From assembly GCA_964480775.1 (NCBI GenBank), contig CAYZRF010000009.1, positions 34,364 to 66,363 on the forward strand: 32,000 bases of DNA, read 5' to 3'. This stretch comes from an uncultured Nitrososphaerota archaeon. Lineage in GTDB: Archaea > Korarchaeota > Korarchaeia > Korarchaeales > Korarchaeaceae. Of this stretch, positions 4,564 to 31,211 are shown one piece after another (the first letter of the stretch is position 1; each line of letters begins with the position of its first letter). The notes under the pieces were generated by a model. The model searched no databases. It was not told where the DNA came from and saw only the letters and a list, made by a program, of their open reading frames with translations. Position numbers and translations under genes: made by a program.

Positions 4564-5511
4564 ATGAAAGCGTGCAGAAAGAAGTTTCTAGCGTTAGGCC
4601 ACCTCACAATAGATGAGTTATTTCACGAAGGAAAGAAAATTAGAGAGAGAATGGGTGGCTCTGTTGCATATGGCTCTTTAGCTGCTGCCTCCATGGGATG
4701 GAAAGCAAGCATAGTTTCAGTTATTGGAGAAGATATGCCAGAGAGCTTTCTTCATAAGCTTCATTCCAGCGGAGTTGATCTTTCTAATGTAAGGATGAGT
4801 GGTAAGCACAGTACAAGATTTCAAGTCGAAGTATCAGGTTCAAGAAGAGTTCTTTCGAAGCCAAGAAGCGCTCCAGCTTTACAATCCTTCGACATTCCAA
4901 GAGATCTAAAGGACTATGACATCTTCTTCTTTGGTCCAATAGGAGGAGAAATTGGTGTGGATCTCATAGATAAAATCAGAAAAGAAGCAAAAGGTATTTT
5001 TGCCGTCGATTTGCAAGGTTTCCTAAGGAAATTTAGTCCTAGTGGGGAGATGATTTTGGTAAAGAACGAAGATGCTCTCATAGCCTGTTCTTATTGTGAT
5101 GTTGTTCACCTAGGCTTAGAAGAATATTTTGCTCTAACAGGAACAGCAAAGTTGTATAAAGGAATAGAAATGCTTCTAGACGTGGGAGCCATAGTAATTT
5201 CCATAACTATGGGAGAAAGGGGAGCTATAGTTGCTGACAAAGAGAAAATCCTTCACATACCAGCAATTAAACCTAAGAGAGTAGTAGATGATGTTGGAGC
5301 TGGAGACGTATTCTTAGCAGTTCTTTCTGTGTGTATAGCAGAAAATAAGGGTCTTGTGGTTTCTTCAGCTATAGCGACTGCCGCCGCATCTCTATCAATA
5401 GAACTCGACGGACCACACCTACTTAACAAGAACGAGATAGATAGAATGTCAAAGATCGTTATACCCTTGATAACTCGCGCTTCTGATAACTTTCAATTTT
5501 CGAATTTATAG
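4564..5511 (+). CDS. PfkB-family carbohydrate kinase, second paralog
   Basis: The ORF opens at TTG 4519; the probable start is ATG 4564 (MKACRKKFLALGHLTIDEL). Contains GGSVAYGSLAAASMG and DDVGAGDVFLAVL, the PfkB signature motifs. Substrate not assignable. Confidence 0.8.
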   Translation: MKACRKKFLALGHLTIDELFHEGKKIRERMGGSVAYGSLAAASMGWKASIVSVIGEDMPESFLHKLHSSGVDLSNVRMSGKHSTRFQVEVSGSRRVLSKPRSAPALQSFDIPRDLKDYDIFFFGPIGGEIGVDLIDKIRKEAKGIFAVDLQGFLRKFSPSGEMILVKNEDALIACSYCDVVHLGLEEYFALTGTAKLYKGIEMLLDVGAIVISITMGERGAIVADKEKILHIPAIKPKRVVDDVGAGDVFLAVLSVCIAENKGLVVSSAIATAAASLSIELDGPHLLNKNEIDRMSKIVIPLITRASDNFQFSNL

Positions 5512-5625
5512 GTGGTTATTGGTGAGTTTCTCTTCTCATTGAATTTACTTATAACTAAAAGACAATATAGGAGAGAGGAAACTGAATATTGCAAGCTTTT
5601 AGGTGAACAGGCGAGTTGTAAAGTG

Positions 5626-6087
5626 ATGTCAATACCAATCGAGATCGTTGAGGTTGAGGGAGAAAGCTGGTGTACAGTACTTAAACAAATGGCTAAACAA
5701 CTGGTAGATAAAGGATATGTCAAGGAATCTTATGTAAATGCCCTTATCGAGAGAGAAAAGAACTATCCCACTGGAATTAAAATCCCTTCAGGGATCAATG
5801 TTGCCATACCTCATGCCGATATAGAACATGTCTTGAGACAGGCACTAATAATTGGTGTACCTAAGAATCCCGTTATCTTCCACAACATTGAGGAGCCGAA
5901 GGAAACTATTAGCGTAGAACTCATTCTTCTACTTGTTATTAAAGAACCAGAGGGTTATGTTAGCTTTCTCTCAAAGTTAACTCGACTCTTTCAGGATAAA
6001 GACTTTATAACATTTGCAAAGGGGAAATTATACAAAAAACTTGCTGATCTAATAGTAGAACGATGTCTTAAAGGAAAAAGTAAGTGA
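5626..6087 (+). CDS. PTS Enzyme IIA, type 2 (mannitol/fructose/galactitol/Ntr-type; SgcA/GatA/PtsN-like)
   Basis: EKNYPTGIKIPSGINVAIPHADIEHV matches the EIIA-2 phospho-His loop (..G.AIPH..). A start at ATG 5626 (MSIPIEIVEV) gives about 153 aa, typical for the family. The track extension back to 5512 encodes atypical sequence. Confidence 0.75.
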   Translation: MSIPIEIVEVEGESWCTVLKQMAKQLVDKGYVKESYVNALIEREKNYPTGIKIPSGINVAIPHADIEHVLRQALIIGVPKNPVIFHNIEEPKETISVELILLLVIKEPEGYVSFLSKLTRLFQDKDFITFAKGKLYKKLADLIVERCLKGKSK

Positions 6088-7530: not shown

Positions 7531-7989
7531 CTAACTAACCAATATTTCGCCAACGACCTCAACTGGAATACAATGCTCTATACTCCTGGAGATATGACAG
7601 TAAGCTATTGCTAAGTCTAAACACTTTTTCGCGCCCTCAACATGCTCTTTCGGAGCATATCCTTTAACCTTAACCTTCATTTTTTTCAGCAAGTAGGCCC
7701 CTTTGACAAGTTCTACGTCAGACTCAGCCTCTAAATTAATGTCTTTTATCTGAATTCCTCTTTTCCTTATGAACCAAAGGAACGTTGTTAGGACACACCC
7801 ACCTACCGAGGCCAAGAACAATTCATCTGGGCACACTCCTTCTCCAAATCCACCAAAGTCCTTAGGTGTATCTATTGTAAATGACTTTCCTCCCTCTGTT
7901 ACTACAGAGGCACCAGTTCTACCATCCCACTGGATTTTAACCCTAAATTTCAATTTTTCTGCGAGTCCTGCCATGTTCTCCCCCTCCAC
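7531..7989 (-). CDS. OsmC/Ohr-family peroxiredoxin-like protein
   Basis: GVCPDELFLASVGGCVLTTF and AIAYCHISRS carry the two conserved Cys regions of the OsmC fold. A TATA-like TTAAATTAATTT (complement of 7999-8010) fits a leaderless start at Met6 (7974) better than at 7989. Confidence 0.8.
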   Translation of the reverse strand: MEGENMAGLAEKLKFRVKIQWDGRTGASVVTEGGKSFTIDTPKDFGGFGEGVCPDELFLASVGGCVLTTFLWFIRKRGIQIKDINLEAESDVELVKGAYLLKKMKVKVKGYAPKEHVEGAKKCLDLAIAYCHISRSIEHCIPVEVVGEILVS

Positions 7990-8078
7990 CCAAGCATCAA
8001 ATTAATTTAAGGGTAAATTCTCATAGCTGAAAAAGACAGACTACTTTGTAAGACAGTTACTCCTATAGTATCTAAGTT

Positions 8079-11666: not shown

Positions 11667-13388
11667 GTGGAAAAACTAAAAGGAATACCAGCATCGCCAG
11701 GCATAGCAATTGGAAGGGCCTTCATATTCAAGAGTGAAAGGAGGGAGGTTGTGAAAAAAGAGATTCCTCCCGAGCTTATTGATACGGAAATAAATAGATT
11801 TAATCAAAGTTTAGGGAAAGCAAAAGAATTTCTAACAGAATTGATGGAAAAAGTTAGAAGAGAGGTAGGAGAGGAGGAGGCGAAGATTTACGAGGCTCAA
11901 CTAATGATGCTTGAGGACGAATCTTCATTTATCGAACCAGTGAAGAAGATGATTTCTAATAAGAAAGTTTGCGCAGAGTTTGCCGTTGAAAAAGTTCTCG
12001 ATGAGATTATTGCCATATTCAAGAAAATGGATAACGAGTACATGAGAGAACGCGCAACTGACGTTAAAGACGTAAAAGAACTCGTAATAAGCTTTCTGTC
12101 TGGAAAAAAGAGAGGAGTCAAAGAATTAACAACAAAGTGTGTTATAGTAGCAAGTGAACTCTTACCGAGCGACATAGCTGCTCTTAACAAAAGAATGGTC
12201 TTGGCGTTTGTGACAGAGACTGGAGGATCTACCTCTCATGTCGCGATAATAGCTAGGACTCTTAAGATTCCAGCAGTGGTAGGGATAGAGAACCTGTCTA
12301 ACAGGGTTAAAGAAGGAGACATGCTTATCGTTGATGGATATGAGGGATTATTATTACTCAATCCAACAGAGGAGATTGTGTCTCTCTATCAAAAGAAGAA
12401 GAAAGAAGGGGAAGTAATGTTCGTTGAACTGGTTAAAGAAGCAAAACTACCAGCAACTACAAAAGATGGATTTAGATTTAAGGTCTTTGCTAATGTTGGC
12501 AATTTGGAAGATGTAAAAAAAGCAATTGAGTATGGGGCTGAAGGCATAGGTCTTCTTAGGACGGAATTCATGTATACGGAAAGAGAAAATATGCCTACCG
12601 AAGAAGAACTCTTTCAAACCTTTCTCGAAATAAGCAAGTTAATGGGCGACAAACCAATCATCATCAGAACTTTGGATATCGGGTGTGATAAGCCGCTTCC
12701 ATATCTTGAAATGCCCAAGGAAGCAAACCCTTTCCTTGGCTGGAGGGGTATTAGATTAACTCTAGAAAACCCTGAGATACTAAAAATCCAGTTTAGAGCG
12801 GTCTTGAGAGCTTCAACAAAAGGGACCTTCAAGATTATGTTTCCCATGGTAACAACGTTGGAGGAAGTCGTAAAGGCAAAAGAAATTTTAAAAGAAGTCT
12901 CAAAAGAGTTAAGTATCGAAAAAATCTCTTTTAAAGAAGTTAAAGTAGGAACTATGATCGAAACTCCAGCTTCAGCTATGATTGTAGATATCCTTGCTAA
13001 GGAGGTGGATTTCTTTAGCATTGGAACTAATGATTTGGTTCAGTATCTAATGGCTGCAGATCGAGGAAACGCAAGAGTTTCAGGACTCTATAGGCCTTTT
13101 CATCCAGCAGTTTTAAGGATGATACACAAAATAATTGAGGATGCTCATAAAGCTGGAAAAGAAGTTGGAATGTGTGGAGAAATGGCATCAGATCCAAAAG
13201 CAATTCCTATCCTTGTAGGAATGGGTTTGGACGAGTTTAGCATGAGTCCGTCTTCGATTCCGAGGGCTAAAAAAGTGATAAGGTCCATAAGTAAAAAGGA
13301 GGCTGTTAACCTCCTGCGAGAAGTCTTAAAGGCTAAGACTATTTCAAATGTATTAGAAAAAGTTTCAAAATTTAGAATTGAGTTTTGA
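11667..13388 (+). CDS. ptsI: PTS Enzyme I (PEP-protein phosphotransferase)
   Basis: 573 aa with a GTG start 2 nt after the HPr stop. Phospho-His motif TETGGSTSHVAIIARTLKIPAVVG, a PEP-utilising TIM barrel (LGLLRTEF, SIGTNDLVQY) and the catalytic Cys in GMCGEMASDP. Confidence 0.93.
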   Translation: MEKLKGIPASPGIAIGRAFIFKSERREVVKKEIPPELIDTEINRFNQSLGKAKEFLTELMEKVRREVGEEEAKIYEAQLMMLEDESSFIEPVKKMISNKKVCAEFAVEKVLDEIIAIFKKMDNEYMRERATDVKDVKELVISFLSGKKRGVKELTTKCVIVASELLPSDIAALNKRMVLAFVTETGGSTSHVAIIARTLKIPAVVGIENLSNRVKEGDMLIVDGYEGLLLLNPTEEIVSLYQKKKKEGEVMFVELVKEAKLPATTKDGFRFKVFANVGNLEDVKKAIEYGAEGIGLLRTEFMYTERENMPTEEELFQTFLEISKLMGDKPIIIRTLDIGCDKPLPYLEMPKEANPFLGWRGIRLTLENPEILKIQFRAVLRASTKGTFKIMFPMVTTLEEVVKAKEILKEVSKELSIEKISFKEVKVGTMIETPASAMIVDILAKEVDFFSIGTNDLVQYLMAADRGNARVSGLYRPFHPAVLRMIHKIIEDAHKAGKEVGMCGEMASDPKAIPILVGMGLDEFSMSPSSIPRAKKVIRSISKKEAVNLLREVLKAKTISNVLEKVSKFRIEF

Positions 13389-13964: not shown

Positions 13965-16900
13965 GTGCCAGATGTAGAGAGAGGTGTTGATATAAGACTT
14001 CTCGTTGTATCTTTGGTGCTATTTTTATTTGTACTTAATTCTTTTTCCTTATACGTCTATACTTACGCGCAGTCTTCTTCTAGAGGAAATTTTGGACCCT
14101 CTCTTAGTATTAACCCTAGAAATCAAGGCCATATTCCCTTTCTTCAAAGGATCGAGGACATCTCAATTGAAGTCGATCTAGATGCACCTCAAGAGGTTGG
14201 AGAGTGCTCTCCTTCTACTTTTATCATAGAAGTTAAGAATACAGGGAATGAGACGGCAAAAAACCTGAATGTAACTAATGTAATGCCTGAGGGATTCTTT
14301 TATCAAGAAGGCAGTTCTTCAATAAATGGAACCCCCCATGAGCCCACCCAGAGTGGTAGAAATCTTACTTGGAGCATAGGAGATGTTACTCCTAACCAGA
14401 CTTTTATCTTAGAATTTAACTTAACTGCTGGATGTGAAGCACATACCGGGGCAGTAGACAAGGCCGTTGTAGAATATTCAAATGGGACTCACACAGATTA
14501 CAGGGAAGATGAATCGTTGGGAATTAAAGTCCTTCATCCTTCTCTTGTCGTTTACAAAGAACCTATTGTGATTCCAGCCCATAAAGGGGACATCGTGAAC
14601 TGGACCGTCAGGGTCAAGAACGAGGGATTTTTCGCAGCCTCAAACGTGACGATTTTAGATTCTTTGGGGAGTGGTCTTTCCCTTAATTCTTCGAATCCAT
14701 CTTATAACGGTTCTTTCCCTAATGGGACCATCTATTGGACCAATATCTCCCTAGATGTGGGTGAAGAGTTTGTTATTCAGCTCAAAGTAAAAGTTGTAGG
14801 TTGCGAGAATCTTACCAACGAAGTTAGAGCCTATCCCACGTGCAATGGTCAAGTTTGTAGAAGGGTTGATGGGGTCCTAACAGAGCTTCCAAACACTCTT
14901 GCTTCCATAGAGTTTCTCAAAAGAGTTCCAAACATACAAATTACTTCATCCACATTAAATCCAAGTCTAATAGGACCATGTAGTCCCTCAAACTTCACAA
15001 TTTTCTTGGAAAATCAAGGAACCGGAGCTTCTTATTCAACCAACGTTACACTTGAATTGAGAGGTGGATTACAGTATGTAAACGGGAGCGGAAATCCAAC
15101 TCCTACTGTTAATGGCGAAGTCTTAACGTTTCATATAGGTACAATAGAGCCTGGAGGAACCAGTAAGATATCCATGAACTTGTCCATCCCTTGTGGGACA
15201 AGCGGGACAAAACAGATTTTGATTCATATGAGATATTTCGATGAATGTGATAATCTTTGGCTCCCTCCAAGCACTTACCTTGGTGTTGATACATCTTCGC
15301 CATCGGTAAGCGTCAGCAAAACTGGACCTCATGAAATAATCAACACAAGTTCTGGAGAGGTTTATACGGTAGATGTGGCTTGTAACGGCCTTAATCTCTG
15401 TCAAAACGCCCATGTGATTGTTAATGATTCAATACCTTCAATGCTCACTTACGTGAACAGCACCCCTCCGGGAAATTACGATCCAGTCAAAAACACCGTA
15501 ACCTGGAATCTATCTGCAGGGAACTATACACTAAACATCACATTGAAGCCCTCTCCTTCAGCAGGATGTGGGGATCATGGGATGAACGAAGTTACTGCAA
15601 CGCTATTCTGCTGTAAAAATTGTAGCATTTCGGATTCCTCTTCCATATCCATAAGAGTAACCTGTTCTGAAATTCCGTCAGATTGTTTTCAAATAAGGTC
15701 ATTCTCAAATCAGTCCTCTGTAGAACCCTGTAAAGGGTTGAACTACACCTCGACCATCAATTTTCTGGTCGATGGTATAAATTCCACTCGTTCCAACATG
15801 ATATATTTCCATTACAATGAAAATGGGTTGAAGGAGGAGTACGTTGGTCCAGCTTACCTCTACCTTCCAAACGGGACTCAAGTTGCATTAGGTCCGCCTT
15901 TGCAGAATTCAACATGCCTGAGCTGGAATCTCAGCTCTTTGAACTTCATAGTCAATTCCGGAGACTCCATAAACATAACGTATGTCCTCAGAGTGAAGTG
16001 CAACGCTTCTTCATACATTCACGACGTCCAAGGATTCTCAATGACAGCAAGGGACTCTGCTGGAAACGACCTTAATTGCTCCGGTGTTGCGAGATGGGCA
16101 GCCTATATCTTGATCATAAGGGCCTCTATGTCGATTTCTGAGGAAATACCTCCCCTTCTGGACTTGTGTAGGGAGAGAGAGTATGAGGTGAGAGTAGAAG
16201 GTGCCACCAGCGCAAATCCGGGGTATAATGTTACCGTGGCAAAATACGTTCCTCCTAACTTCATTTATAACTCTACTACAGAAGTAGAGTTCTCGAACGG
16301 AACTATAGTCCAAGTCACTCCTTATTTTGAGAACAGATGGCTAATTTGGAATAAATCAATCGTTTCCCAGCTTTCTAAGGTTGACTGTGATTTTTGGATA
16401 AGAGTAAATATGACTGCATGCTACAACAGGACCCCTGGCTTCCACTTTAAGGCAAATCTTACATGGGATGATTACTGTTTATATATTGGAGGGTGTACAC
16501 CGGATTGTACTTGTAGACGTACGGACATATATGACAGCGGTTCAATTCTCATCCTGAAACCTGAGTTCGTTATACTTAAGACTCCAGAGGTTATTTATGC
16601 TATACAACAAGAAGTAAAATGGAGGATTCAGCTCTCAAATGTAGGAAACGGCTCTGCATATTCACCAGCTTTCAAGCTTGTCGATCTCCTTGGAGAGGGT
16701 CTCGTATGCGTTGGAACTGACTTGCCAACTGGTTGGTCTGCAACTATCTCGCCTGACAGAAGAAACGTGACCTTTACTGCTCAATCCCTTGACGCAGGGG
16801 AGACTGTCGAGTTTAACTTGACCGCTAAGATGGTTAAGTGTGAGGGACTAACGAACAATGTCTCTGCTTTGTGGGGATGCTGCGGTAAATGGTTCCAGAT

Positions 16901-19900
16901 GGATTTCGATAACTCTTCCGTAGAGGTCCCATCGGCAGCAGTATCAATCACAGATCACTTAGAACCGCAAGCAGCCAAACTTTGTTACGATCAAAAAGTA
17001 ACAGTTAAGCTGAAGAACGTAGGTAAAGTTGCCATCTATAACTGTACCTTAAACTATACGCTTCCAAATTGCTATGTCTACAATAGCAATGTCCAGGCCT
17101 ATGTGAACGGAACTCCATTTAATCCAAATCTCTCAGGCAATAGATGGGCGCTCTGGAACTTCACGCAAACAACATTCGATGAAATTCTTCCGAATGAGTT
17201 TACAGAAATCGTTTTTAACGCAACAGCAACGTGTCCATGCGACATAGATAATTCTGGTGGCTACTCAGCAACGTTACTTTCCTATGCCAAAGCCTGTGGA
17301 CAAGTCGTCGGTCCATTCAATTACACTGGAACTGCGCTTTACACAGTAGATGCTCCGGACATCTACCTTGTAGTCCCATCCTATATCTGTGGGGAGGCCG
17401 GAGATATTGTATGGTGGAATTTAACAATTAGAAATAGAGGAAGTGCTACTGCAGAGCTTGTTAATGTTACGGTCGAGATTCCGGCAAGCGTTTCAGTGAT
17501 ATCTACGATTCCTGCTCCAGACTCAGTTGCAGGCAACATTTACACCTGGTTAACTCAGTCAGTTGGTGGTAAGGTTCCTGACATACCCCCGAACGGGGAA
17601 TTTGAGATAGACATGCGCGTTAGGGTTGATGATTGTGATCCTCAAGATTATCTTAAAGTGAAGATAGAAGATGGTTGCCCTGGATGTTTCTTTGAAAGGG
17701 AATGGTACAATAATACTACCTATGTCCACAGTCAACCATTCCCACCCGAAATACATCAAGACTTAGAACCTGTTAACGCGTGTGGAAATGCAACATATAA
17801 AGTGCAAGTAGCAAACGAAGATCCCTGTCTCTCGTTGTACGCAACTCAACAAGGCGCAAATTATGTCCTAACTTTCCTCGATTATCTGCCAACCGGGATA
17901 TCATACAGAGGCGAGTCAGGCGACTGGGATGTCCTATTCCATGATAATGAGACGGGATCAAACACTAGCATGAATGCCAATACGATTTTTTCTTATGATC
18001 AGGTTAATAACGTCATAAACTGGACGATCGTCCTCTCATCTTTTGAGATGACACCTGGAGATTATTTCATATTCACCTTCAACGTTACATCTCAGATCTG
18101 TGATCTTTCGTCAGGAAATAACGTGTTTCAGGCTACAAAGTTCAAAGATTCTTGCGGATATGATATTTCAGCAAGTAACACCGCTAGAGCACCGATTTTA
18201 TTACCAGATCTATCGATATCCAAGACTCCTAGCGTTCAATACGGTGATCTTTACGATCAGGTTTGCTGGAACATACGGGTCACCAACAACGGTAACGGCA
18301 CTGCCTACAATGTTACAATATGGGATGTACTCTGCCAAGCTTTGTCTTTTGATGAGAATGCTCAAGCATCAACAACGCCCTGGGACCTAGTTTATCTCCC
18401 TGGGGTTAATGCGTCCGGGGCTGAGACGACTATAGTCTGGAAGAATAGAGTTATACCACCTGGAGGTTATGTCACATTAGTCCTATGCGCAAATATCTCG
18501 GCTTGTCCTGTTCCTCCACAACACCCATACGATGATGCTTATGCGAACTGGGGGTGTGACTCCTACTGTAATTACTCAACTCCAGTCCATGCTCATGCCG
18601 ATGTCTACATGTATGGAGTTCCAAGTCCACTCTCGAAGTCTCCGACGTCATTTAATGTTTGTGGAAATGAAACGATAGAAATTTCAGTAACCAACGCAGG
18701 CGCGACGATGTTTGGAATATGCATAAATGAAACGCTTCCGTATGGTCTTGATCCCATTTTCATTGACACCTCAGGAAATGTTCTTGCAAACGTTACCTTA
18801 GGGACGACTACCTACTATAACGTGCCGAGTAACTATACTGTAAGTGTTTCAGGGCTGTACGAAAGAATAATTTGGAATCTAACGAAAATTAATGTTTCAC
18901 AAGGTCAAACACTATATTTGAGATTTAGGGTTCATGCAAATTGTAGTTTTGATTTCTCTACTGAGACAGTTAACATCACGTATTGGGACTCCTGTGGAGA
19001 AGTTTATTCTATGGAGAGAGAAGATCTCCTCAGGCCCCTCAGACCAGATTTATCGATAAGCTATAAGACTAAAACCCAGCCAGCTGGTAGACCCGATAGA
19101 TTTGAACTTGTTGAGTGGGAAATTCATGTGATAAACTCTGGAGACGGGGATCTTTACTTCTTAAACGTTTCAGACAAGTTGGGATCTCAATTCAAATTTA
19201 TTTCATCATCACCCTCTCCAGATTGGGTTGATGACCCATTAGACCCTCACATCCTAAAGTGGAGTTTTGACTGGAGTAGCAGTCCGTTATCTCCTGGAGA
19301 TGAATACGTAATAACTATCAGGGCGAACCTTACTGGTTGTGCAGAGCCCGGATGGAACAATGCATCTCTAGTTTGGGGTTGTGATTCTGTAGCTTGTGCA
19401 CCAATTTCTTGGGCAAATAGCTCCGTTGAGAGAGCAAAACCCGACCTAGTTGTTTCTTATTCATCTCCGCCCTTCTTGATCTGTGGAAATACTACTGTCA
19501 ATTTCTACGTTACAAATATTGGTGATGGGTCTGCTTTTGGATTTAACTCCAGCCAGCCATTTAAATTGAGATATCTCTTCCCTGTAAGAGCTCCAAATCT
19601 TGATTGCATGAAATATGTTTCCGGAAGCACGAACATCTCGTTCTCAAACGGGACCATAATACATCCAGAGCCTCAGATATTGATGGTTGGGGGAGAGAAG
19701 TTCCTTGAATGGAACCTGTATTGGATACAAGTTGGACCTGGAGAACGGATAAATGTCAGCTTTAAGGTCATTGCCTCTTGCTGTTTCCAAAAAGGAGACA
19801 ATGGTTCGGCATATGCTAGCTGGTATGACTTATGTGGTAATTTCGGTGAAGACGAGGATATAGATGCGGCCTCTCAAATACTAATTCCGGACATTTCCTT

Positions 19901-22871
19901 GAGTAAAACGCCAACCACTGTTGGGGCAGATCGTTGGGATAACGTCTCTTGGCTTATCGAAGTGCGGAATGATGGGAATGGAACTGCTAATTTTGTGAAC
20001 GTCACGGAAGTATTTGGATCGGGACTTACATATATCACAGATAATGCCTCTCAATACAGAGTTTATTCAGACCATAACAAGGTTGTCTGGAACTTAACAG
20101 AAATACCTGCAGGAGATAGGATTCTCATAGTATCGTGGGCAAATGTCTCAGGATGTAGTGGACTGACAAACGATGTTTACGCAAGCTGGGGATGTATTGG
20201 GGCAATTTGTCAGGAGAAGAATAGCTCAACAACAGTTTATTTGATTTGGCCAAACATATCAATAAGCAAAAAACCGGTTGGGGGTACTTGCCCAGTTAGA
20301 GTTGAGCCAGGAGATGTTACCACATTTGAGATTTTGTTAAATAATTCTGGAACAAAAGGCACGGGGTATAACCTCACAGTAGAGGACGAAATGCCTTCGT
20401 TCATGGAGTTTTTAGACGCAAGCGATGGAGGTACTTACAACGCTAGTACCCACAACGTCACATGGAAGATCTCAAAGCTAGGAAATGAGACTATGATGTT
20501 AACCTTGACTATGCGTGTTAAACCTGGAACTCCAGACGGAGCTGCTGAAATTAACAACGTTACTGTCACTTACTTTGACGCCTGTGGCAATACTAAGAAC
20601 CCAGACACTGGCGCTCCTTATTGGGACAAAGCAGAGTGTAAGATGATAACTGTTGCTGCTCCAGAGTTAAGAATCAATAAAACAATATCAGAAAATCCAA
20701 TAAATGCTTGTCATAACGTCAGCGTCATTTTAACAATTAGAAACATTGGACATGGAACTGCATATTCTGTAAATGTCTCAGATATTCTTCCACCAGGAAT
20801 AGAGTATGTCAAAGGATCAACCGAGGTAAGAAACTCTTCTACAGGTGCCATAATATCAACGGCAGATCCTGTGGTAACCACGATGGGAACTTCTGGGAGA
20901 ACTAACCTTACATGGCCTCTTAATTTAAAGATGAACGGAAAGGAGAATATAACCATAAGCTTTAATCTAACTGCTGGGTGCGGGCTTAAAGCAGGGTTAG
21001 AAGAGTTTTCTGTTGTTGGTAAGGATGGAGGAGGGTTCATTAAGAGAGACAGTGGTTCTATGGATATTTTGGTCGTAATACCAGTTCTTGAAGTCGAAAA
21101 AGAGCCAGAATCACAGACAAAGTCCCTCGGGAGCGTTGTAGAATGGACGATAACCGTCAGAAATGTTGGAAACGGGACCGCACACAACGTGACGTTAGTA
21201 GATCAGCTTGGTCCAGGTTACGAATTTGTTTCTGCAAACGGTTCTTACAGCATATCAGGAAACACAATAACGTGGACTAACATCTCTTTGACTTCAGGAT
21301 CCTCTCAGAGCTTTAACATTAAGGCGAGGATCTCCAAGTGTTCTGGTCTAAAGGAGCACGTTGAAGCCAGTTGGTGGTGTAGAAACGTATCTTGTGCCTC
21401 ATCCGAGGCAGAGGCAAGGGTTTCTCTTAGAGCTCCCAAATTAACGGTTGAAAAGCAATTCAATGCCAGTTTCGTTAAGATAAGAGAGCCAGTTCTTGCA
21501 ACGATCAGGGTCAGAAACGTTGGAAATGAAGGGGGAACAAATCTAATGGTTTTTGAACCTCTACAAGAATGTTGGACTTTCCTTGGAACGGTTAGTGTTC
21601 TGGACGAATCGGGTAGGCCAGTTGGATACAAAGAAGAAATCACTACAGAGGGAGTGGTTTGGAGGATAAACTCCTTAGGCAAAGGAGAGGAGGTCGAGAT
21701 AAAATTCGTTATAACTTATGATTGCAATTCGCTTCCAGGATCAAGACGTCAGCACAACTTCACAAACTGTGTTCTAGCAAATCTTACAGGAAGTTGTGGT
21801 CCAGTGTCGGCGACCAATTGTTCATGGATTGTCGTGGAACTCCCATCGAGAACACCGACACCTACTCCGACTCCCACTGTTACTCCGACTCCAACACCCA
21901 CAGCCACACCAACCCCAACACCGACACCTACTCCGACTCCCACTGTTACTCCGACTCCAACACCGACGCCTGCCCCACCGATCAAACTGAAGGTTTCAAA
22001 AGCCTCTAAGAAGATCATAATGTGGGGAGATCTGGTAAACTACACGGTTATAGTAAGGAATGAAGGAAATACCAACCTAGTAAACATAGCGGTGACAGAC
22101 AATCTTCCTTCTTACCTTGAATACATACGTGGAACTTCTACGATAAATGGTCATAAATCTGAACCAAAAATTGAGCAAGATTCGCTTATTTGGATAATTT
22201 CGTCTCTAGCTCCAGGAGAAGAAGCCATCATAAAGTTCAGTTGTAGGATGCTTGAATACCCAAGAGGAGGCATCATAATCAATCCTGTGAATGTAAGAGG
22301 GTTCGAGACGTACGCACGGTCTCTAATATATGCCCCAATTTCATTACTTCTATTAATACCGTTATTTGTACTGACAACAAGGAGGAGACCTGTAGTTGTC
22401 GACTTTGAATATCTAAAAACGCTATTCAAAGCAACGGATTTCTTCCTTCCGTTTCTCTTCGGAAAAATTATAATCTCAAAATCTACATTTGAAAAGGCTA
22501 CAAGAGATAAGAAAATCAGCAACATAGTTGAAGAACTCGTTTCAAGAGGTCTAATTCAAGTTCACGAACTATCACAAGAAGCTAGGGAACTCTCAGAAGA
22601 AATTACAAGCATCTATCAGGTAGAAAAAGAGGAAGGCGATGCTATAGCACTATCACTTCAATGCGAAGCTGAGAAAGCTCTGTTAGGTAGAATTAAGACA
22701 AGAGAGGTTGCTATTTCATTGGGTATAAGAGCGTTGGGGTGTGGAGGTTCGATATTTTATCTAATCGAGAAGGGCTTGATCACCAAAGAGGAGGGGCGAG
22801 TCCTTCTCGATTTTTTAGTTTCTGAGGGATATCTTACAAGTTCCGAAGATATAAGTTTGGGAGGGGTGTGA
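13965..22871 (+). CDS. Giant (2968 aa) secreted, membrane-anchored surface protein: signal peptide, about 18 DUF11-type conserved repeat beta-sandwich modules, Thr/Pro linker, C-terminal TM helix, cytoplasmic PIN-like tail
   Basis: GTG start 27 nt from a TATA-like box. N-terminal signal/TM ([27 protein letters not shown]). Module-start motifs recur (e.g. PDLSISKTP...VxWxIxVxNxGNGTAxNVxxxDxL). NxS/T sequons are very dense and Cys motifs are conserved. The linker [18 protein letters not shown]... is followed by one more DUF11 module, then [22 protein letters not shown] + RRRP, then a 159-aa tail. Confidence 0.9.
21851..21964 (+). repeat. Two perfect 48-bp direct repeats (21851-21898 and 21917-21964, period 66 bp) encoding the Thr/Pro linker
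   Basis: The sequence aacaccgacacctactccgactcccactgttactccgactccaacacc occurs twice, identically and in frame ([16 protein letters not shown]). Confidence 0.9.
22320..22379 (+). other. Predicted C-terminal transmembrane anchor of the giant protein
   Basis: A 20-residue hydrophobic stretch, [20 protein letters not shown], is immediately followed by RRRP (positive-inside rule). Confidence 0.7.
22392..22868 (+). other. Cytoplasmic tail domain resembling a PIN / DUF3368-type domain (partly degenerate)
   Basis: [11 protein letters not shown] resembles PIN strand 1 with its Asp. EGDAIALSL resembles [47 protein letters not shown] resembles the DUF3368 consensus GT.G.L..A...GLI......LL..L...GF.IS.EL. 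The expected LLxDD..AR is replaced by LLGRIKTR. Confidence 0.5.
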
Positions 22872-26792: not shown

Positions 26793-27494
26793 GTGACTCT
26801 GCTAGTAGGTGTTAGGTGTAGAGACGGAGTTGTTGCTGGTGCTGATTCTAAAATCCTTAGAGGGGGCGAGGTAGAGTACTCAGATAAGATTTTTGAAAAG
26901 AACAACGTGGTCATGGGAATTGAAGGACTTACTGGATTGAGAGATGATTTTCTACTGCTTTTAGATGCTGAGATCGCAAGGAGAGGGGAGAAGATAACAA
27001 AACTGTACGAAATGAAGGTCGTCGTTGAAGACATAATTTCAGATCTTACTAAGAGATATGCAAGCAGGGTTGGTGATTCTTCCCCAATTGGGGTCCTTTT
27101 GGCTGGTCTAGAGAAAATAACTGGAGGGAAGGCTATCCTATACTTTATACATGGAATAGGATACGGTGAGAGGGTTAACTTTATCTGCAGCGGACACGGC
27201 GGGCCTTACGCGACCGCTTTGGCGAAATATCTTTTATCACCCGGTCTTAGCGTTGAAGAGAACGCAAAGTTGATAGCTTTCGTGATATCTTGGGTTAGCG
27301 AAGAGCTTGATGCAACGGTTGGTGGAAGACCGCTTGTGGCGATGATAAAAGACGAAGATGCTAGCATAACATATCTAGACGATAGCGTAATAGATGATAT
27401 GATGGATAAAGCCCAAATTGCTAAGAAAGAGCTTAGAAAACTCTTTCCACTTGGATTTTCTGGGAATGATGGCCCTAAAGGAGTGAATAGATAG
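26793..27494 (+). CDS. Proteasome beta / HslV-like N-terminal-nucleophile (Thr) hydrolase without a propeptide
   Basis: A GTG start is followed directly by Thr (MTLLVGVRCRDGVVAGADSK). The sequence is colinear with archaeal PsmB. Thr1 (26796-98), Asp17 (26844-46), the Lys of DKIF (26886-88), SGHGGPYA (equivalent to GSGS.YA) and LDATVGG (equivalent to the Asp166/Ser169 region) are all present. An in-frame TAG lies at 26757-26759 and there is no alternative start between it and the GTG. Confidence 0.75.
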   Translation: MTLLVGVRCRDGVVAGADSKILRGGEVEYSDKIFEKNNVVMGIEGLTGLRDDFLLLLDAEIARRGEKITKLYEMKVVVEDIISDLTKRYASRVGDSSPIGVLLAGLEKITGGKAILYFIHGIGYGERVNFICSGHGGPYATALAKYLLSPGLSVEENAKLIAFVISWVSEELDATVGGRPLVAMIKDEDASITYLDDSVIDDMMDKAQIAKKELRKLFPLGFSGNDGPKGVNR

Positions 27495-27523: not shown

Positions 27524-27781
27524 TCAAGGCATGTCCCGATTTAACTTGAGCTTGAGTTCTTCCAGTCTAACAAACAGCTCCACTATTGCGCTCATCATCA
27601 AAACCTCTCTTGCATCGGCTGGAGGATCAACTGAGTACGCATCCAACAACCTGTTAGCGGAAGTTATTAGCTCCTTAAGGGCTTTTTTGGTATGTGGATC
27701 TCTCTCAACTCTAGCTATCTTCTCAATTCTCTCAATCTCTCGTCTTAAAGCCATTCGGAGAGTAGGTGCTGACCTTCCCAT
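27524..27781 (-). CDS. Small (85 aa) charged alpha-helical protein, unknown function
   Basis: The K/E/R/L-rich composition is typical of real thermophile proteins, while the opposite-strand ORF is S/L-rich shadow. It overlaps the stop of the upstream RadA-paralog gene (by 37 nt, or by 10 nt if Met10 at 27754 is the start), which implies co-transcription. Confidence 0.55.
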   Translation of the reverse strand: MGRSAPTLRMALRREIERIEKIARVERDPHTKKALKELITSANRLLDAYSVDPPADAREVLMMSAIVELFVRLEELKLKLNRDMP

Positions 27782-28515
27782 TTCAAACCCTCCAGTTCTC
27801 TCTTCTTTATCAGAGCTAAGGCAGGAGGAAGTGAGGGGTGCTTCACTAGCCTGATCTTAACGGTTCCTCTTCCACCTATGGGGTCCAGTCTTACGAGTAT
27901 GTGCACAGAATGGGCATGATAGTTCCCACCCTGGGGAGAAAACCTATCCTCTATGGGCCTATTGAATACGATTACGGTTCTATCATTAGAGGGCAACTTC
28001 ATGAGCCAAGTAAGCCTTGAAGCACTCTGTAAATCGCGGAATTCAACGTGCAAGTAAGGATCAAACACTAAGAGGAATTCAGAATTCTCTTTAACTGCAG
28101 AGTTAACAAGTTCTAAAGCATCCTCAAACTTAAACGCTCTAGCGATCTTGAGGTTGCTATCTACTAGACTCCAAGAGACAGATAATCTTTCAGCCATTGT
28201 TTTTAGGAGGTATGGATCCAGCCCACCAAACTCCTGGATATAGAGCAAGAGCGTCTTTCCTTTTTCTGCTGATAAAACCGCAAGCCGATGGCATAAGAGC
28301 GATAAAAGCTCGTTATCTGGAGAGTAAAATTCTGTAAGTGAATTTTCTTCTATACCTCCCCCAAGTAAATTATCTAGTGCTCCTATTCTAGTGGATAAGG
28401 CTATCCCCCGGCATGTCACTTGGGCTAACATAACCCAGAGTGCGCTAGCAATCACCGTTGAAAAAGACTGAGGAACTTTTTGTAAGTACAGAGATATCAG
28501 AGAAAAGTTTTCCAT
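27745..28515 (-). CDS. RadA/RadB-like recombinase paralog with the Walker A P-loop destroyed
   Basis: LSTRIGALDNLLGGGIEENSLTEFYSPDNELLSLLCHRLAV aligns without gaps to the RadA consensus ISTGS.[34 protein letters not shown]. The equivalent of GEFGSGKTQ is SPDNELLSL (complement of roughly 28297-28323). A Walker-B-like LLVFDP, GGNYHAHSVHILVRL and VKHPSLPP (equivalent to DSPHLPE) are retained. Met29 (28431) is an alternative start. Confidence 0.7.
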   Translation of the reverse strand: MENFSLISLYLQKVPQSFSTVIASALWVMLAQVTCRGIALSTRIGALDNLLGGGIEENSLTEFYSPDNELLSLLCHRLAVLSAEKGKTLLLYIQEFGGLDPYLLKTMAERLSVSWSLVDSNLKIARAFKFEDALELVNSAVKENSEFLLVFDPYLHVEFRDLQSASRLTWLMKLPSNDRTVIVFNRPIEDRFSPQGGNYHAHSVHILVRLDPIGGRGTVKIRLVKHPSLPPALALIKKRELEGLKWEGQHLLSEWL

Positions 28516-28551
28516 AAAGATTTTTTAAGTTACTCTAGTGTCCATTATTTA

Positions 28552-28568
28552 CCATTAAATACAAAATA
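28552..28568 (+). promoter_or_regulatory. TATA-like box of polB, in the 67-bp divergent gap shared with the RadA paralog
   Basis: ccattaaatacaaaata is centred about 25-31 nt upstream of TTG 28583 / ATG 28589. On the other strand, gtaaataatgg (complement of 28542-28552) sits about 27-37 nt upstream of ATG 28515. Confidence 0.4.
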
Positions 28569-28582
28569 CCTCACATTGAGGT

Positions 28583-30637
28583 TTGATTATGCTGGAAGGA
28601 TGGTTTCTGGACGCAGAGCTGACGAGGGACTTGGTATCGGTGAAGCTTGTCTCTGACTCCAGTGAAATCATTAAAGCTGAGATACCTTGGTCTGAAAGGC
28701 TGTATCTAACCCCGAAGAACGGATTTTGTCTAGAAGAGTTGGTAAATGTACTCAATCAGGCAAATGGAGTTAAGAGACTAAATGTTGAAAGGTGGTACCT
28801 TCCTCCTCGCTATAAAAAGGAAGCTAGTGTCCTAGTAGCTGAAATCAAGCCCTCTGAGTCAAAGAAAATTCTCAAATATCTCAAGGAAAGCGGGGTAGCA
28901 GAAATATGGAATCTATTCCCCTCAAGAATCCAGAGGGCATTGAAAAGCCTAGGAATTACAGCTTCATCATACATTTGTATAGAAAAAAGCGCAGTTAAAC
29001 TATTGGAGGAACCAGACTCCCTAGAGTACTCTTTGCCTGAGCTTCGACCTCTATGGCTAAGATTTGAGGGTTGGGTTGGAAGACCAAACAAGCCATCTTG
29101 GCATGCCATCGACAGGATTGTCTTGGAATCAGATAGCTGGTCAAGAGTTATTCCTGTAAGTAGGATGGAGGAAGTTATTGATCTGTTGGTGGATCTGAGT
29201 CCACACTTGCTTATTTTCGAGGGAAAGGGTTGGAGAAGGTTAATGGAGGAAGTACCTGGTTTCAAAGCAGCCGTAGATGCCACGAAGCTCGTGGTTCTAG
29301 ACAAACCTCCTCCTTTAGATGTGGACCTGCTTGGACTTATCGAGTGGAGCAGATTATCTGCGATTCCCCTGAGGATAGCTGTTTCTACATCAATAGGGAA
29401 GGTTCTCACGAGTATTGAGGCATTTAAAGCTCTTGAATGGAGATATCTGGTACCGGAAGTAAGGGTAACGATCGAAGGCTGGAAGAGTCCTAGCGAGCTT
29501 TTGAGGGCAGACAGAGGAGGGGTTGTTCTAACCCCTAGGCCAGGAATCTACTGGGATGTTGTCCAGATTGACTTCAACTCGTTGTTCCCTTCGATAATGG
29601 CAAAGAATAACATAAGCCCAGAAACTGTCAACGATCTTGAATGTTCGGGCCCCAAGTTAGAGGTTCCGGAAGTAGGACACACGATTTGCCTCGGACGCAG
29701 AGGGCTTGTGGCTGAAGTGGTGGGCAAGCTAGTTGAGAGAAGAGCACAATTGAAGGCATTGGCCAGGTCTGCTTCATCAGACGAAATCGGGAGGTATGAT
29801 TCAGCCCAAAAAGCAATTAAATGGATCCTTGTTGCCTGCTTTGGTTATCTAGGATATAGAAACGCGAGGTTCGGGAGCATAGAGGCGTATGAATGTGTAA
29901 CTGCCCTTGCGAGGGATATAATGTTCAAATCGATTCGAATAGCTGAAAGGATGGGTTTTAAAGTGCTTCATGCCCTCGTAGACTCTCTTTTTGTCCAAGT
30001 TAGCTCAAAGGACCGAGAAAGTGTCCAAAAGCTTATCAGAACTATGGAAAAGGAGACTGGGTATGATCTCAAGGTGGAGGCCGATTACACCTGGATTGCT
30101 TTTTTCAGCGACGTCTCCGGCATTTCGGGAGTTCCTTCCAGATATCTCGGCAGATTAAGAGAAGGGGGAATTAAAGCTAAGGGCTTAGAACTTTGTAGGA
30201 AGGATGCTCCTCCTCTGATTAAAAGGACGATGGAGAAATGTCTTTTGATGCTATCTCAGGCAACAAGTGAAGCGGAGCTTAAAGAAGCCCTAATAAAGGC
30301 CTTGGGGCTAGTAGAGAAGCGCGAAACTGAGCTTTATTCCGGGCTTGTGGAGGAAAACGAACTGGTTATTGAAAGGAGGATATCTAAACCTCTTGAAAAG
30401 TATTGCAAGAGAGTATCGCATGTTTTAGTCGCTAAGAGACTTGCTTCAGTTTCAGAAAGGGTAAGATACATAGAGTCCCAGATTCCTTATCCTGTTGACT
30501 TTGGATTCATGGGTTATTCTGTCGATAAGTATGCCTCTTGGCTTAGAAGGTCCGCAGAACCATTAAGACAGATGTTAAACACGGTTTTTCATGAAAATCA
30601 AGAGCTTCACAATCAAAGCAAATTAATGGCTGAGTAG
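28583..30637 (+). CDS. polB: Family B DNA polymerase with degenerate 3'-5' exonuclease motifs and a variant motif C (PolB2/Dpo2-like)
   Basis: Motif A is DFNSLFPSI (29570-). It is preceded by RGGVVLTPRPG, the equivalent of Y.GG.V..P. Motif B is QKAIKWILVACFGYLGY, versus the consensus QKALKILANSFYGYYGY. Motif C is VLHALVDSLFV, versus VIYGDTDSLFV. KGLELCRKDAPPL is the equivalent of KG.E.VRRDW. Exo I FDIE is replaced by LRFE and Exo II N...FD by EGKGWR. The likely start is ATG 28589. Confidence 0.8.
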   Translation: MIMLEGWFLDAELTRDLVSVKLVSDSSEIIKAEIPWSERLYLTPKNGFCLEELVNVLNQANGVKRLNVERWYLPPRYKKEASVLVAEIKPSESKKILKYLKESGVAEIWNLFPSRIQRALKSLGITASSYICIEKSAVKLLEEPDSLEYSLPELRPLWLRFEGWVGRPNKPSWHAIDRIVLESDSWSRVIPVSRMEEVIDLLVDLSPHLLIFEGKGWRRLMEEVPGFKAAVDATKLVVLDKPPPLDVDLLGLIEWSRLSAIPLRIAVSTSIGKVLTSIEAFKALEWRYLVPEVRVTIEGWKSPSELLRADRGGVVLTPRPGIYWDVVQIDFNSLFPSIMAKNNISPETVNDLECSGPKLEVPEVGHTICLGRRGLVAEVVGKLVERRAQLKALARSASSDEIGRYDSAQKAIKWILVACFGYLGYRNARFGSIEAYECVTALARDIMFKSIRIAERMGFKVLHALVDSLFVQVSSKDRESVQKLIRTMEKETGYDLKVEADYTWIAFFSDVSGISGVPSRYLGRLREGGIKAKGLELCRKDAPPLIKRTMEKCLLMLSQATSEAELKEALIKALGLVEKRETELYSGLVEENELVIERRISKPLEKYCKRVSHVLVAKRLASVSERVRYIESQIPYPVDFGFMGYSVDKYASWLRRSAEPLRQMLNTVFHENQELHNQSKLMAE

Positions 30638-30638
30638 C

Positions 30639-31211
30639 CTATAGGGACTCTATCCATCTTATGAATGGTTCTTTTCTTGGGGGTGGTCTTGGAACCTTTT
30701 CTGGGTATCCTACAGCTATCAAGGCCACAAGTTCCTTGTCTTCAATTCCAAAGAATTCGTTTATTTCCTTAGCTACCCACAAAGGGCCTGTCATCCAGCA
30801 CGTCCCCAAACCTTCTGCGTAAGCCAAGAGCAAAAAATTCTGTATAGCTGCTGAGCAACTTTCTATTGCACCCGTCTGGTATACCGGTTCCTTCAATCGA
30901 TCAGTGTATACTGCTACTATCAAAGGCGCACCACCTAAAGTGGAGAAGAACCATCTCACGAATTCAACATGCCTATCGGAAAAGAGTTCCCTTAGCCTCT
31001 TTTCCAATAAATTGAAAGATTGGCTGCAAATTTCAACGAGTTTCTCTCTCGCCTCTCCAGTAACCACATAGAAATACCAAGGTTGAGTGTTCATGGCTGA
31101 TGGAGCCCAAGTACACTCCCTTAGAATTTTCTCAACAAGATCTTTGGGAACAGGTTTATCTAAGAACCTTCTTATGCTTCTCCTTCCTCTTATAGCATCA
31201 AGAAGTTCCAT
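30639..31211 (-). CDS. Nitroreductase-family FMN oxidoreductase
   Basis: MELLDAIRGRRSIRRF..PSAMNTQPW...GLGTCWM are classic nitroreductase motifs. The start is taken at Met22 of the track ORF (31211); the track ORF extends to 31274. Confidence 0.85.
   Translation of the reverse strand: MELLDAIRGRRSIRRFLDKPVPKDLVEKILRECTWAPSAMNTQPWYFYVVTGEAREKLVEICSQSFNLLEKRLRELFSDRHVEFVRWFFSTLGGAPLIVAVYTDRLKEPVYQTGAIESCSAAIQNFLLLAYAEGLGTCWMTGPLWVAKEINEFFGIEDKELVALIAVGYPEKVPRPPPRKEPFIRWIESL

Follow-up and report, generated by a model that had tools for sequence, protein, structure and literature searches.

What kind of system do three neighbouring genes form when one encodes a family-B DNA polymerase with degenerate motifs, another a RadA-like protein deprived of its Walker A motif, and the third a small helical protein? 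The question is raised by 32,000 nucleotides of the contig CAYZRF010000009.1 (the window, i.e., the whole stretch of DNA that was analysed), which stem from an uncultured Korarchaeota-like Thermoproteota archaeon of hydrothermal sediment. On the one hand, the plus strand carries polB2 (28589..30637; 682 aa, ATG at 28589), the gene for a Dpo2-type family-B DNA polymerase; on the other hand, the minus strand carries the genes for iRadA (27745..28431; 228 aa, ATG at 28431, corresponding to Met29 of the longest open reading frame, ORF), an inactivated RadA/Rad51 core, and for PPB2 (27524..27781; 85 aa), a three-helix protein of arCOG07300, i.e., Pfam DUF8156 (PF26485). As detailed below, the locus very probably encodes the PolB2-iRadA-PPB2 system, also called the "PolB2 mutasome," and its trio is already known as a system rather than novel.

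Linkage and signature motifs of the three families

The association of PolB2 with an inactivated RadA and arCOG07300 was reportedly described by Makarova and Koonin in 2013. Makarova, Krupovic and Koonin (2014; PMC4104785) linked PolB2 with inactivated RadA genes of arCOG07763, arCOG04294, and arCOG08101 as well as with the ~90-aa helical protein arCOG07300, in a conserved predicted operon seen both in archaea and in bacteria that acquired PolB2, and proposed a damage-repair complex; stand-alone arCOG07763-arCOG07300 pairs were also reported in haloarchaea. Timinskas, Timinskas and Venclovas (2025; PMC11791011) named iRadA, PPB2, and the "PolB2 mutasome," and modelled a PolB2:iRadA:PPB2(3) heteropentamer, which they likened to the Pol V mutasome. 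Its hallmarks comprise (i) an 'MGRT' arm of PPB2 with Arg3 and Arg9, to which a role is ascribed, (ii) a D(K/R) motif of PolB2 following an iRadA-binding element similar to that of Rad51 oligomerisation, and (iii) a clamp-binding motif in iRadA or PolB2, rarely in both and more commonly on iRadA, the three genes sharing the same orientation 'in most cases' (PMC11791011). The arrangement, which a preliminary description of this DNA regarded as an undescribed neighbourhood system, is thus already present in these two publications (PMC4104785; PMC11791011).

Respective to gene linkage, a species-representative genome collection was scanned with a PolB2 alignment, which yielded 584 relatives, with 80 loci kept, and the partners were searched for on six-frame ORFs with iterated hidden Markov models seeded only with the window proteins and their close homologs. 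The arrangements were counted at 63 PolB2 loci from different species, each with at least 1.2 kb upstream. Both iRadA and PPB2 were encoded next to PolB2 at 56 of these 63 loci, and at least PPB2 at 59, the adjacency of the three families spanning many archaeal and bacterial phyla. The order iRadA>PPB2>PolB2 on the same strand accounted for 51 loci (24 archaeal and 27 bacterial), the divergent order of the window, <PPB2<iRadA PolB2>, for three, and another order or orientation of both partners for two; PPB2 only was found beside PolB2 at three loci and neither partner at four. With the iterated models, the PPB2 family adjoins PolB2 in 68 loci. As such, the neighbourhood noticed in one genome by the preliminary description, namely a RadA paralog without Walker A and a small protein by PolB2, is a recurrent one.

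The RadA-like protein first belongs where it was placed. Its longest ORF, of 256 aa, matches Pfam Rad51 (E=1e-12) and the NCBIfam models of RadB, RadA, Rad51, and Dmc1, with 29-48 bits for cut-offs of 172-478 bits. Since the alignment with yeast Rad51 starts at residue 79 of the latter, at the ATPase core, the N-terminal helical domain is missing from iRadA. In the same alignment, SPDNELLS (28300..28323, minus strand) stands at the place of the Walker A GEFRTGKS of Rad51; the SP of this octapeptide is conserved among iRadA relatives, the window iRadA is devoid of any GxxxxGK[ST], and a Walker A match is missing in 64 of 65 PolB2-linked iRadA ORFs. With scores under the cut-offs and the Walker A gone, the protein does not, judging from its sequence, qualify as an active RadA/RadB recombinase. 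Its AlphaFold2 model (mean predicted local distance difference test score of 71.7) retrieves Rad51/RadA/Dmc1 cores with Foldseek (E ~1e-13, template-modelling score ~0.7). At the C-terminus, QHLLSEWL (27748..27771, minus strand) resembles a PCNA-interacting protein (PIP) box and constitutes a putative PCNA-binding tail, in which 12 relatives all share L224, W227, and L228; the pattern Qxx[LIMV]xx[FWY][LFM] ends 12 of 36 archaeal iRadAs, the window copy included. No PIP-like motif was found by sequence pattern at the C-terminus of PolB2, and the candidate clamp-binding motif is thus carried at this locus by iRadA rather than PolB2, as the published family rule expects.

The gene for PPB2 overlaps that for iRadA by 37 nt, and the AlphaFold2 model of its product consists of three helices (residues 5-25, 29-51, and 57-82). 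Its N-terminal arm, MGRSAPTLR (27755..27781, minus strand), corresponds to the 'MGRT' motif with both Arg3 and Arg9. An N-terminus of the type (M/V/L)G(R/K)(T/S/N) is present in all 68 detected PPB2s and Arg9 in 33 of them. Close homologs bear the precomputed annotation PF26485/DUF8156; the 85-aa protein and other PPB2s gave no match even at E=10 in the Pfam copy scanned, which is devoid of PF26485, and the 85-aa protein gave none in NCBIfam. A narrow profile built from five PPB2 sequences recovered 21 representatives in a library of 1.8 billion proteins, a figure which underestimates such a short and fast-evolving family. A sequence search of the PDB with all three families returned no solved structure of any of them.

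As for the polymerase, the 684-aa longest ORF matches Pfam DNA_pol_B but no exonuclease domain (PF03104), and the same holds true for its relatives. The exonuclease and polymerase motifs were located by aligning a profile of 30 PolB2 sequences to the PolB of Pyrobaculum calidifontis (5mdn). In the decayed exonuclease region (29039..29242, plus strand), with LWLRFEGW for Exo I and FEGKGWRRL for Exo II, the catalytic Asp/Glu are gone, the FDIE and FD of 5mdn being aligned to arginines or gaps, and Exo III falls within a stretch of ~100 residues absent from the PolB2 family. Four matches bearing the exonuclease Pfam domain were considered as canonical Exo references and rejected, for they are PolB2-like themselves (DRGG, no clear Exo motifs). 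On the same strand, motif A, DFNSLFPS (29570..29593), retains the catalytic Asp328; motif B, of the PolB2 type KWILVACFGYLGYRN (29819..29863), retains Lys411 and is identical across archaeal and bacterial PolB2s; motif C, HALVDS (29969..29986), has a Leu for the first Asp of DTD and retains the second, Asp465. These 'altered' motifs are nearly invariant in 30 relatives of Korarchaeota-like, Desulfurococcales, Sulfolobales, Caldisphaera, and bacterial origin, motifs B and C of the window agreeing with those of 29 further PolB2s, among them sequences from Caldisphaera, Sulfolobales, and bacteria. Asp308, Gly311, Asp328, Lys411, and Asp465 are invariant across the 30 PolB2s.

The segment LLRADRGG (29498..29521, plus strand) bears D308-R309 after an LxxA and would correspond to the published D(K/R) motif, i.e., the segment proposed to bind iRadA and the PPB2 arm, as suggested by its conservation and by the distance that separates it from motif C (155 aa in the window PolB2 vs 148 aa in S. 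islandicus). Crenarchaeal PolB2s have DR, DK, or DM at this position, and the preceding LxxA seems to resemble the FxxA element of Rad51. An LDK at residue ~236 was also considered for the D(K/R) motif and was rejected, being unconserved and at the wrong spacing to motif C.

Most of what the preliminary description had read in the letters stands after these analyses: its three ORFs are all present with the same boundaries, the RadA/RadB-fold protein has a replaced P-loop and matches Rad51, RadA, and RadB models in profile searches, the 85-aa helical protein overlaps its gene, and the polymerase has lost the Exo acidic residues, exhibits altered motifs B and C, and keeps the motif A Asp and the second motif C Asp.

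Divergent layout and loci without polB2

The boundaries of the divergent gap required revision. The longest ORFs extend over 27524-27781 (minus strand, 85 aa), 27745-28515 (minus strand, 256 aa), and 28583-30637 (plus strand, 684 aa), the latter opening at a TTG at 28583, and it is because these were taken that a gap of 67 bp had been proposed. Both this gap and the 28-codon N-terminal extension of iRadA were rejected, as the extension is broken in four relatives, by in-frame stops in L085, L001, and L002 and by a missing start codon in L087. Met29 of the longest ORF is conserved among the relatives compared, and RadA-like homologs are mostly 206-233 aa long. Since the extension is unconserved and, in relatives, iRadA is called at 227-228 aa and PolB2 at 682 aa, the divergent intergenic region covers 157 bp (28432..28588). 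The start of polB2 is most likely the ATG at 28589, which lies 6 nt after a Shine-Dalgarno-like GAGGT (28578-28582). The gap contains A/T-rich stretches at ~28516-28531 and 28541-28566, the putative promoters of both transcription units being placed in the gap by eye; a search of it for repeats, direct or inverted, gave none. A hairpin-capable CCTCA-CAT-TGAGG (28570-28582) overlaps the GAGGT; L005 and L085 preserve its stem, with a different loop in the latter, and in L087 the stem is degraded. The hairpin may be due to chance, the stem being of 5 bp only.

The divergent layout recurs in close relatives, namely L005, a 'Thermoproteota archaeon' metagenome-assembled genome (MAG) from Guaymas with a PolB2 96% identical and probably of the same species as the window, L085/L086 (89%), L090 (86%), L087 from a 'Candidatus Korarchaeota' MAG (82%), as well as L089 and L007 at ~50% (51% in L089). 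The gap measures ~155-164 bp in the closer relatives, e.g., 155-157 bp in L085 and L087. The layout <PPB2<iRadA | PolB2> is a lineage-typical yet minority version of the iRadA>PPB2>PolB2 operon.

Some peculiarities of these relatives deserve mention in their own right. In L089, a 93-aa same-strand ORF (4723-5004) overlaps the start of polB2 and has no Pfam match; it was considered as a second PPB2 and rejected as not PPB2-like. L008 (6001-6735) encodes a PolB2 fragment (residues ~311-548), 78% identical to that of the window, and belongs to a MAG also holding the full-length copy at 89% (L086) on another contig; it may represent the remnant of a pseudogene, a stretch that was masked, or contamination of the bin. 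The nitroreductase gene is fragmented in L085 (7051-8405) and L090 (2478-3050), i.e., the relatives with PolB2 identities of 89% and 86%, and so is, in L085, the arylmalonate-decarboxylase-like gene downstream of polB2; these split genes are either pseudogenes or assembly frameshifts.

In two independent metagenomes, i.e., L001 (hydrothermal vent, ERZ940666) and L091 (Guaymas sediment, JGI 3300003332), the synteny of the window is found without polB2. The gene is missing between those for iRadA and the nitroreductase (L001 4186-4416; L091 4694-5000), with 2,129 bp of the window (28511-30639) replaced by 231 bp and with iRadA and PPB2 intact. Comparing the window with L001, the ratio of non-synonymous to synonymous substitution rates (dN/dS) is 0.13 for iRadA and 0.17 for PPB2, and ~0.05-0.06 for flanking genes, values which average both lineages, the polB2-less branch not being separated out. 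The iRadA and PPB2 genes are under purifying selection. L002 harbours a different gene upstream of iRadA, its region 39-369 matching the OsmC-like region of the window (7685-8014); tblastn also gave a 23-aa PolB2 match in L002 (E=8e-4), which was discarded as probably spurious, this flank matching the window OsmC region. Because L002 breaks there too, the 5' end of iRadA is a recurrent site of rearrangement. A brief look for a mobile-element origin of the presence or absence of polB2 revealed no integrase or repeats.

PolB2s of a 'solo' clade are encoded in L092 (1305-3986) and L088 (1-2478), on contigs where no iRadA or PPB2 was found; they share 69-71% identity with the window PolB2 and keep all PolB2 motifs. 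Directly upstream of them, a 148-aa Cys/His-rich protein is encoded, which is 81% identical between the two loci, bears the motif HDCADWSRCAPxxxFCKHxGK, and matches no Pfam family; in L092, a MarR-type regulator and DUF72 fragments are further neighbours. The polB2-less L091 and L092 share one metagenome, just as L088 and L090 share one MAG. One could tentatively consider that the module is being dismantled or reshuffled in this lineage, with iRadA-PPB2 maintained without an adjacent polB2 and the solo PolB2 travelling with the 148-aa protein, a doubtful proposal at this stage. Were iRadA-PPB2 able to function without PolB2, or to switch between PolB2 paralogs, it would serve as a general adaptor of polymerases or forks and not as a subunit dedicated to PolB2, and the 148-aa protein could be an alternative partner of PolB2.

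These loci bear directly on an alternative to the PolB2 mutasome, in which iRadA-PPB2 would be an autonomous two-protein module independent of the adjacent PolB2 and would serve another polymerase, recombination, or fork processing. The intact and syntenic iRadA-PPB2 of L001 and L091 in the absence of polB2, the dN/dS of 0.13-0.17 in the window-L001 comparison, the other gene upstream of iRadA in L002, and the haloarchaeal stand-alone arCOG07763-arCOG07300 pairs (PMC4104785) speak in its favour. The linkage with PolB2 is nonetheless overwhelming across archaea and bacteria, PolB2 has kept the invariant segment to which both partners are proposed to bind, the dN/dS averages both lineages, and a solo PolB2 (69%, ADRGG kept) is present in the metagenome of a polB2-less locus, so that the partner may be encoded elsewhere. 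On balance, an autonomous module is unlikely.

Polymerase activity, mechanism, and surrounding genes

Turning to the polymerase, it could be asked whether PolB2 is catalytically inactive, the trio having a structural or regulatory function in the initiation of replication or in the handling of forks. The hypothesis of an inactivated polymerase, the original one, was put forward in PMC4104785, and the Leu for the first Asp of motif C, the altered motif B, and the lost exonuclease motifs are in line with it. Biochemistry has shown otherwise for Sulfolobus Dpo2, which is active, exonuclease-free, and able to extend mismatched and lesion-opposed termini (PMC8764526), the Dpo2 of S. islandicus and S. 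solfataricus being robust polymerases with IID instead of DTD (PMC8764526; PMC11791011). Moreover, Asp328, Lys411, and Asp465 are invariant in 30 diverse PolB2s, therefore indicating selection for catalysis, and orc1/cdc6 was not found in the window. A catalytically dead PolB2 thus appears very improbable. As for three unrelated neighbours adjacent by coincidence in one genome, the opposite strands (hence not one operon) and the variable presence of polB2 in close relatives are of little help against three families adjacent at 56/63 loci in many archaeal and bacterial phyla and a divergent layout kept down to 51% PolB2 identity, and this explanation, effectively refuted already by the linkage survey, retains next to no likelihood.

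Returning to the PolB2 mutasome, a mechanism can be proposed by analogy with published work. From the studies on Sulfolobus Dpo2, PolB2 would be an active proofreading-free polymerase extending mismatched or lesion-opposed primer ends in translesion synthesis; Dpo2 is also damage-inducible and mutagenic (PMC7390963). Following the published AlphaFold models, one iRadA would dock on the LLRA-DR segment of PolB2 in the manner of Rad51-Rad51 contacts, and a PPB2 trimer would reach with one of its MGRS arms in between PolB2 and iRadA, close to the DNA. The tail QHLLSEWL of iRadA could tether the complex to PCNA, a function assigned to it because the window PolB2 is without such a tail. The 157-bp bidirectional promoter region plausibly lets both transcription units be co-regulated.

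Several points weigh against this assignment. A 2026 review still treats the PolB2 complex as a prediction awaiting verification. The biochemistry all comes from the Dpo2 of Sulfolobales, a distant relative of the window PolB2, and relatives from Sulfolobales and Caldisphaera are ~32-37% identical to the window PolB2. None of orc1/cdc6, SRAP, and DUF72, which are hints of damage regulation, is present among the window genes. Nor do the three genes always go together, since polB2 is missing beside iRadA-PPB2 in sister populations. What is shown for the window trio is its membership in the three families, their linkage, and the conservation of their motifs. As a discovery, the locus carries little weight, the neighbourhood prediction being more than 10 years old and the structural model dating from 2025. 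It adds, however, one more clean member, from a Korarchaeota-like lineage whose sampling is poor, with all published interface motifs, the D(K/R) one as a probable assignment and the putative PCNA-binding tail on iRadA rather than PolB2, and with a conserved divergent layout, and the polB2-minus and polB2-plus sister populations provide natural material for asking if iRadA-PPB2 depends on PolB2.

The remaining genes of the window are metabolic or encode surface proteins. Next to PPB2, a 233-aa proteasome-subunit-like protein (26793-27494; Pfam Proteasome, E=4e-12) scores far under the NCBIfam cut-offs for alpha and beta subunits, is kept in L001 and L087 and absent in L085, and could represent a diverged beta-like proteasome paralog. 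A 2,968-aa ORF (13965-22871) with nine DUF11 repeats as well as CARDB, DUF7507, and DUF7619 domains probably encodes a giant protein of surface or adhesin-like type. Components of the phosphotransferase system (PTS) are uncommon in archaea; the window encodes a PTS EIIA-2-like protein (5512-6087) and a phosphoenolpyruvate-utilising enzyme with a PTS enzyme-I-like architecture (11667-13388), in the vicinity of PfkB kinases and a LarA-like gene.

Comparison with known systems

Compared with the PolB2 mutasome as published, the window shares the adjacency of the three families, the MGR(T/S) arm, an iRadA without N-terminal domain and Walker A but with a C-terminal motif of the PCNA-binding type, and a PolB2 exhibiting exonuclease loss, the motif C change, and a candidate D(K/R) segment. 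It differs in being split into two divergent units instead of the usual same-strand operon. Respective to the Dpo2 systems of Sulfolobales, the host is Korarchaeota-like, and orc1/cdc6, DUF72, and SRAP were not found nearby.

Among more distant systems, DNA polymerase zeta (Rev3-Rev7-Pol31-Pol32) is likewise a proofreading-free B-family extender with accessory subunits (comparison made in PMC8764526), although these subunits are unrelated and none has the Rad51 fold. The Pol V mutasome of E. coli (UmuD'2C-RecA-ATP) also combines a translesion polymerase, an oligomer of a small protein, and one subunit of recombinase fold, following the analogy of PMC11791011. There, however, the polymerase is of the Y-family, a filament supplies the RecA, which is the active recombinase, and the accessory proteins share no homology with those of the window. 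The bacterial ImuA-ImuB-DnaE2 (ImuC) is similarly a damage-tolerance cassette with a degenerate RecA-fold protein, an adaptor, and an error-prone polymerase. Its adaptor ImuB is an inactive Y-family polymerase and DnaE2 a C-family polymerase. In the window, scans with Pfam and NCBIfam revealed neither C-family polymerase nor Y-family ImuB-like genes, the polymerase is of family B, and PPB2 is an 85-aa three-helix protein devoid of Y-family similarity, so that homology is limited to the RecA/RadA fold. As an archaeal counterpart of ImuA-ImuB-DnaE2, as first proposed, the locus is hence comparable in logic only. This logic itself, i.e., a dead recombinase paralog and a small adaptor aiding an error-tolerant polymerase, coincides with the published reading of the PolB2 mutasome, with which both the neighbourhood and the motif tests agree.

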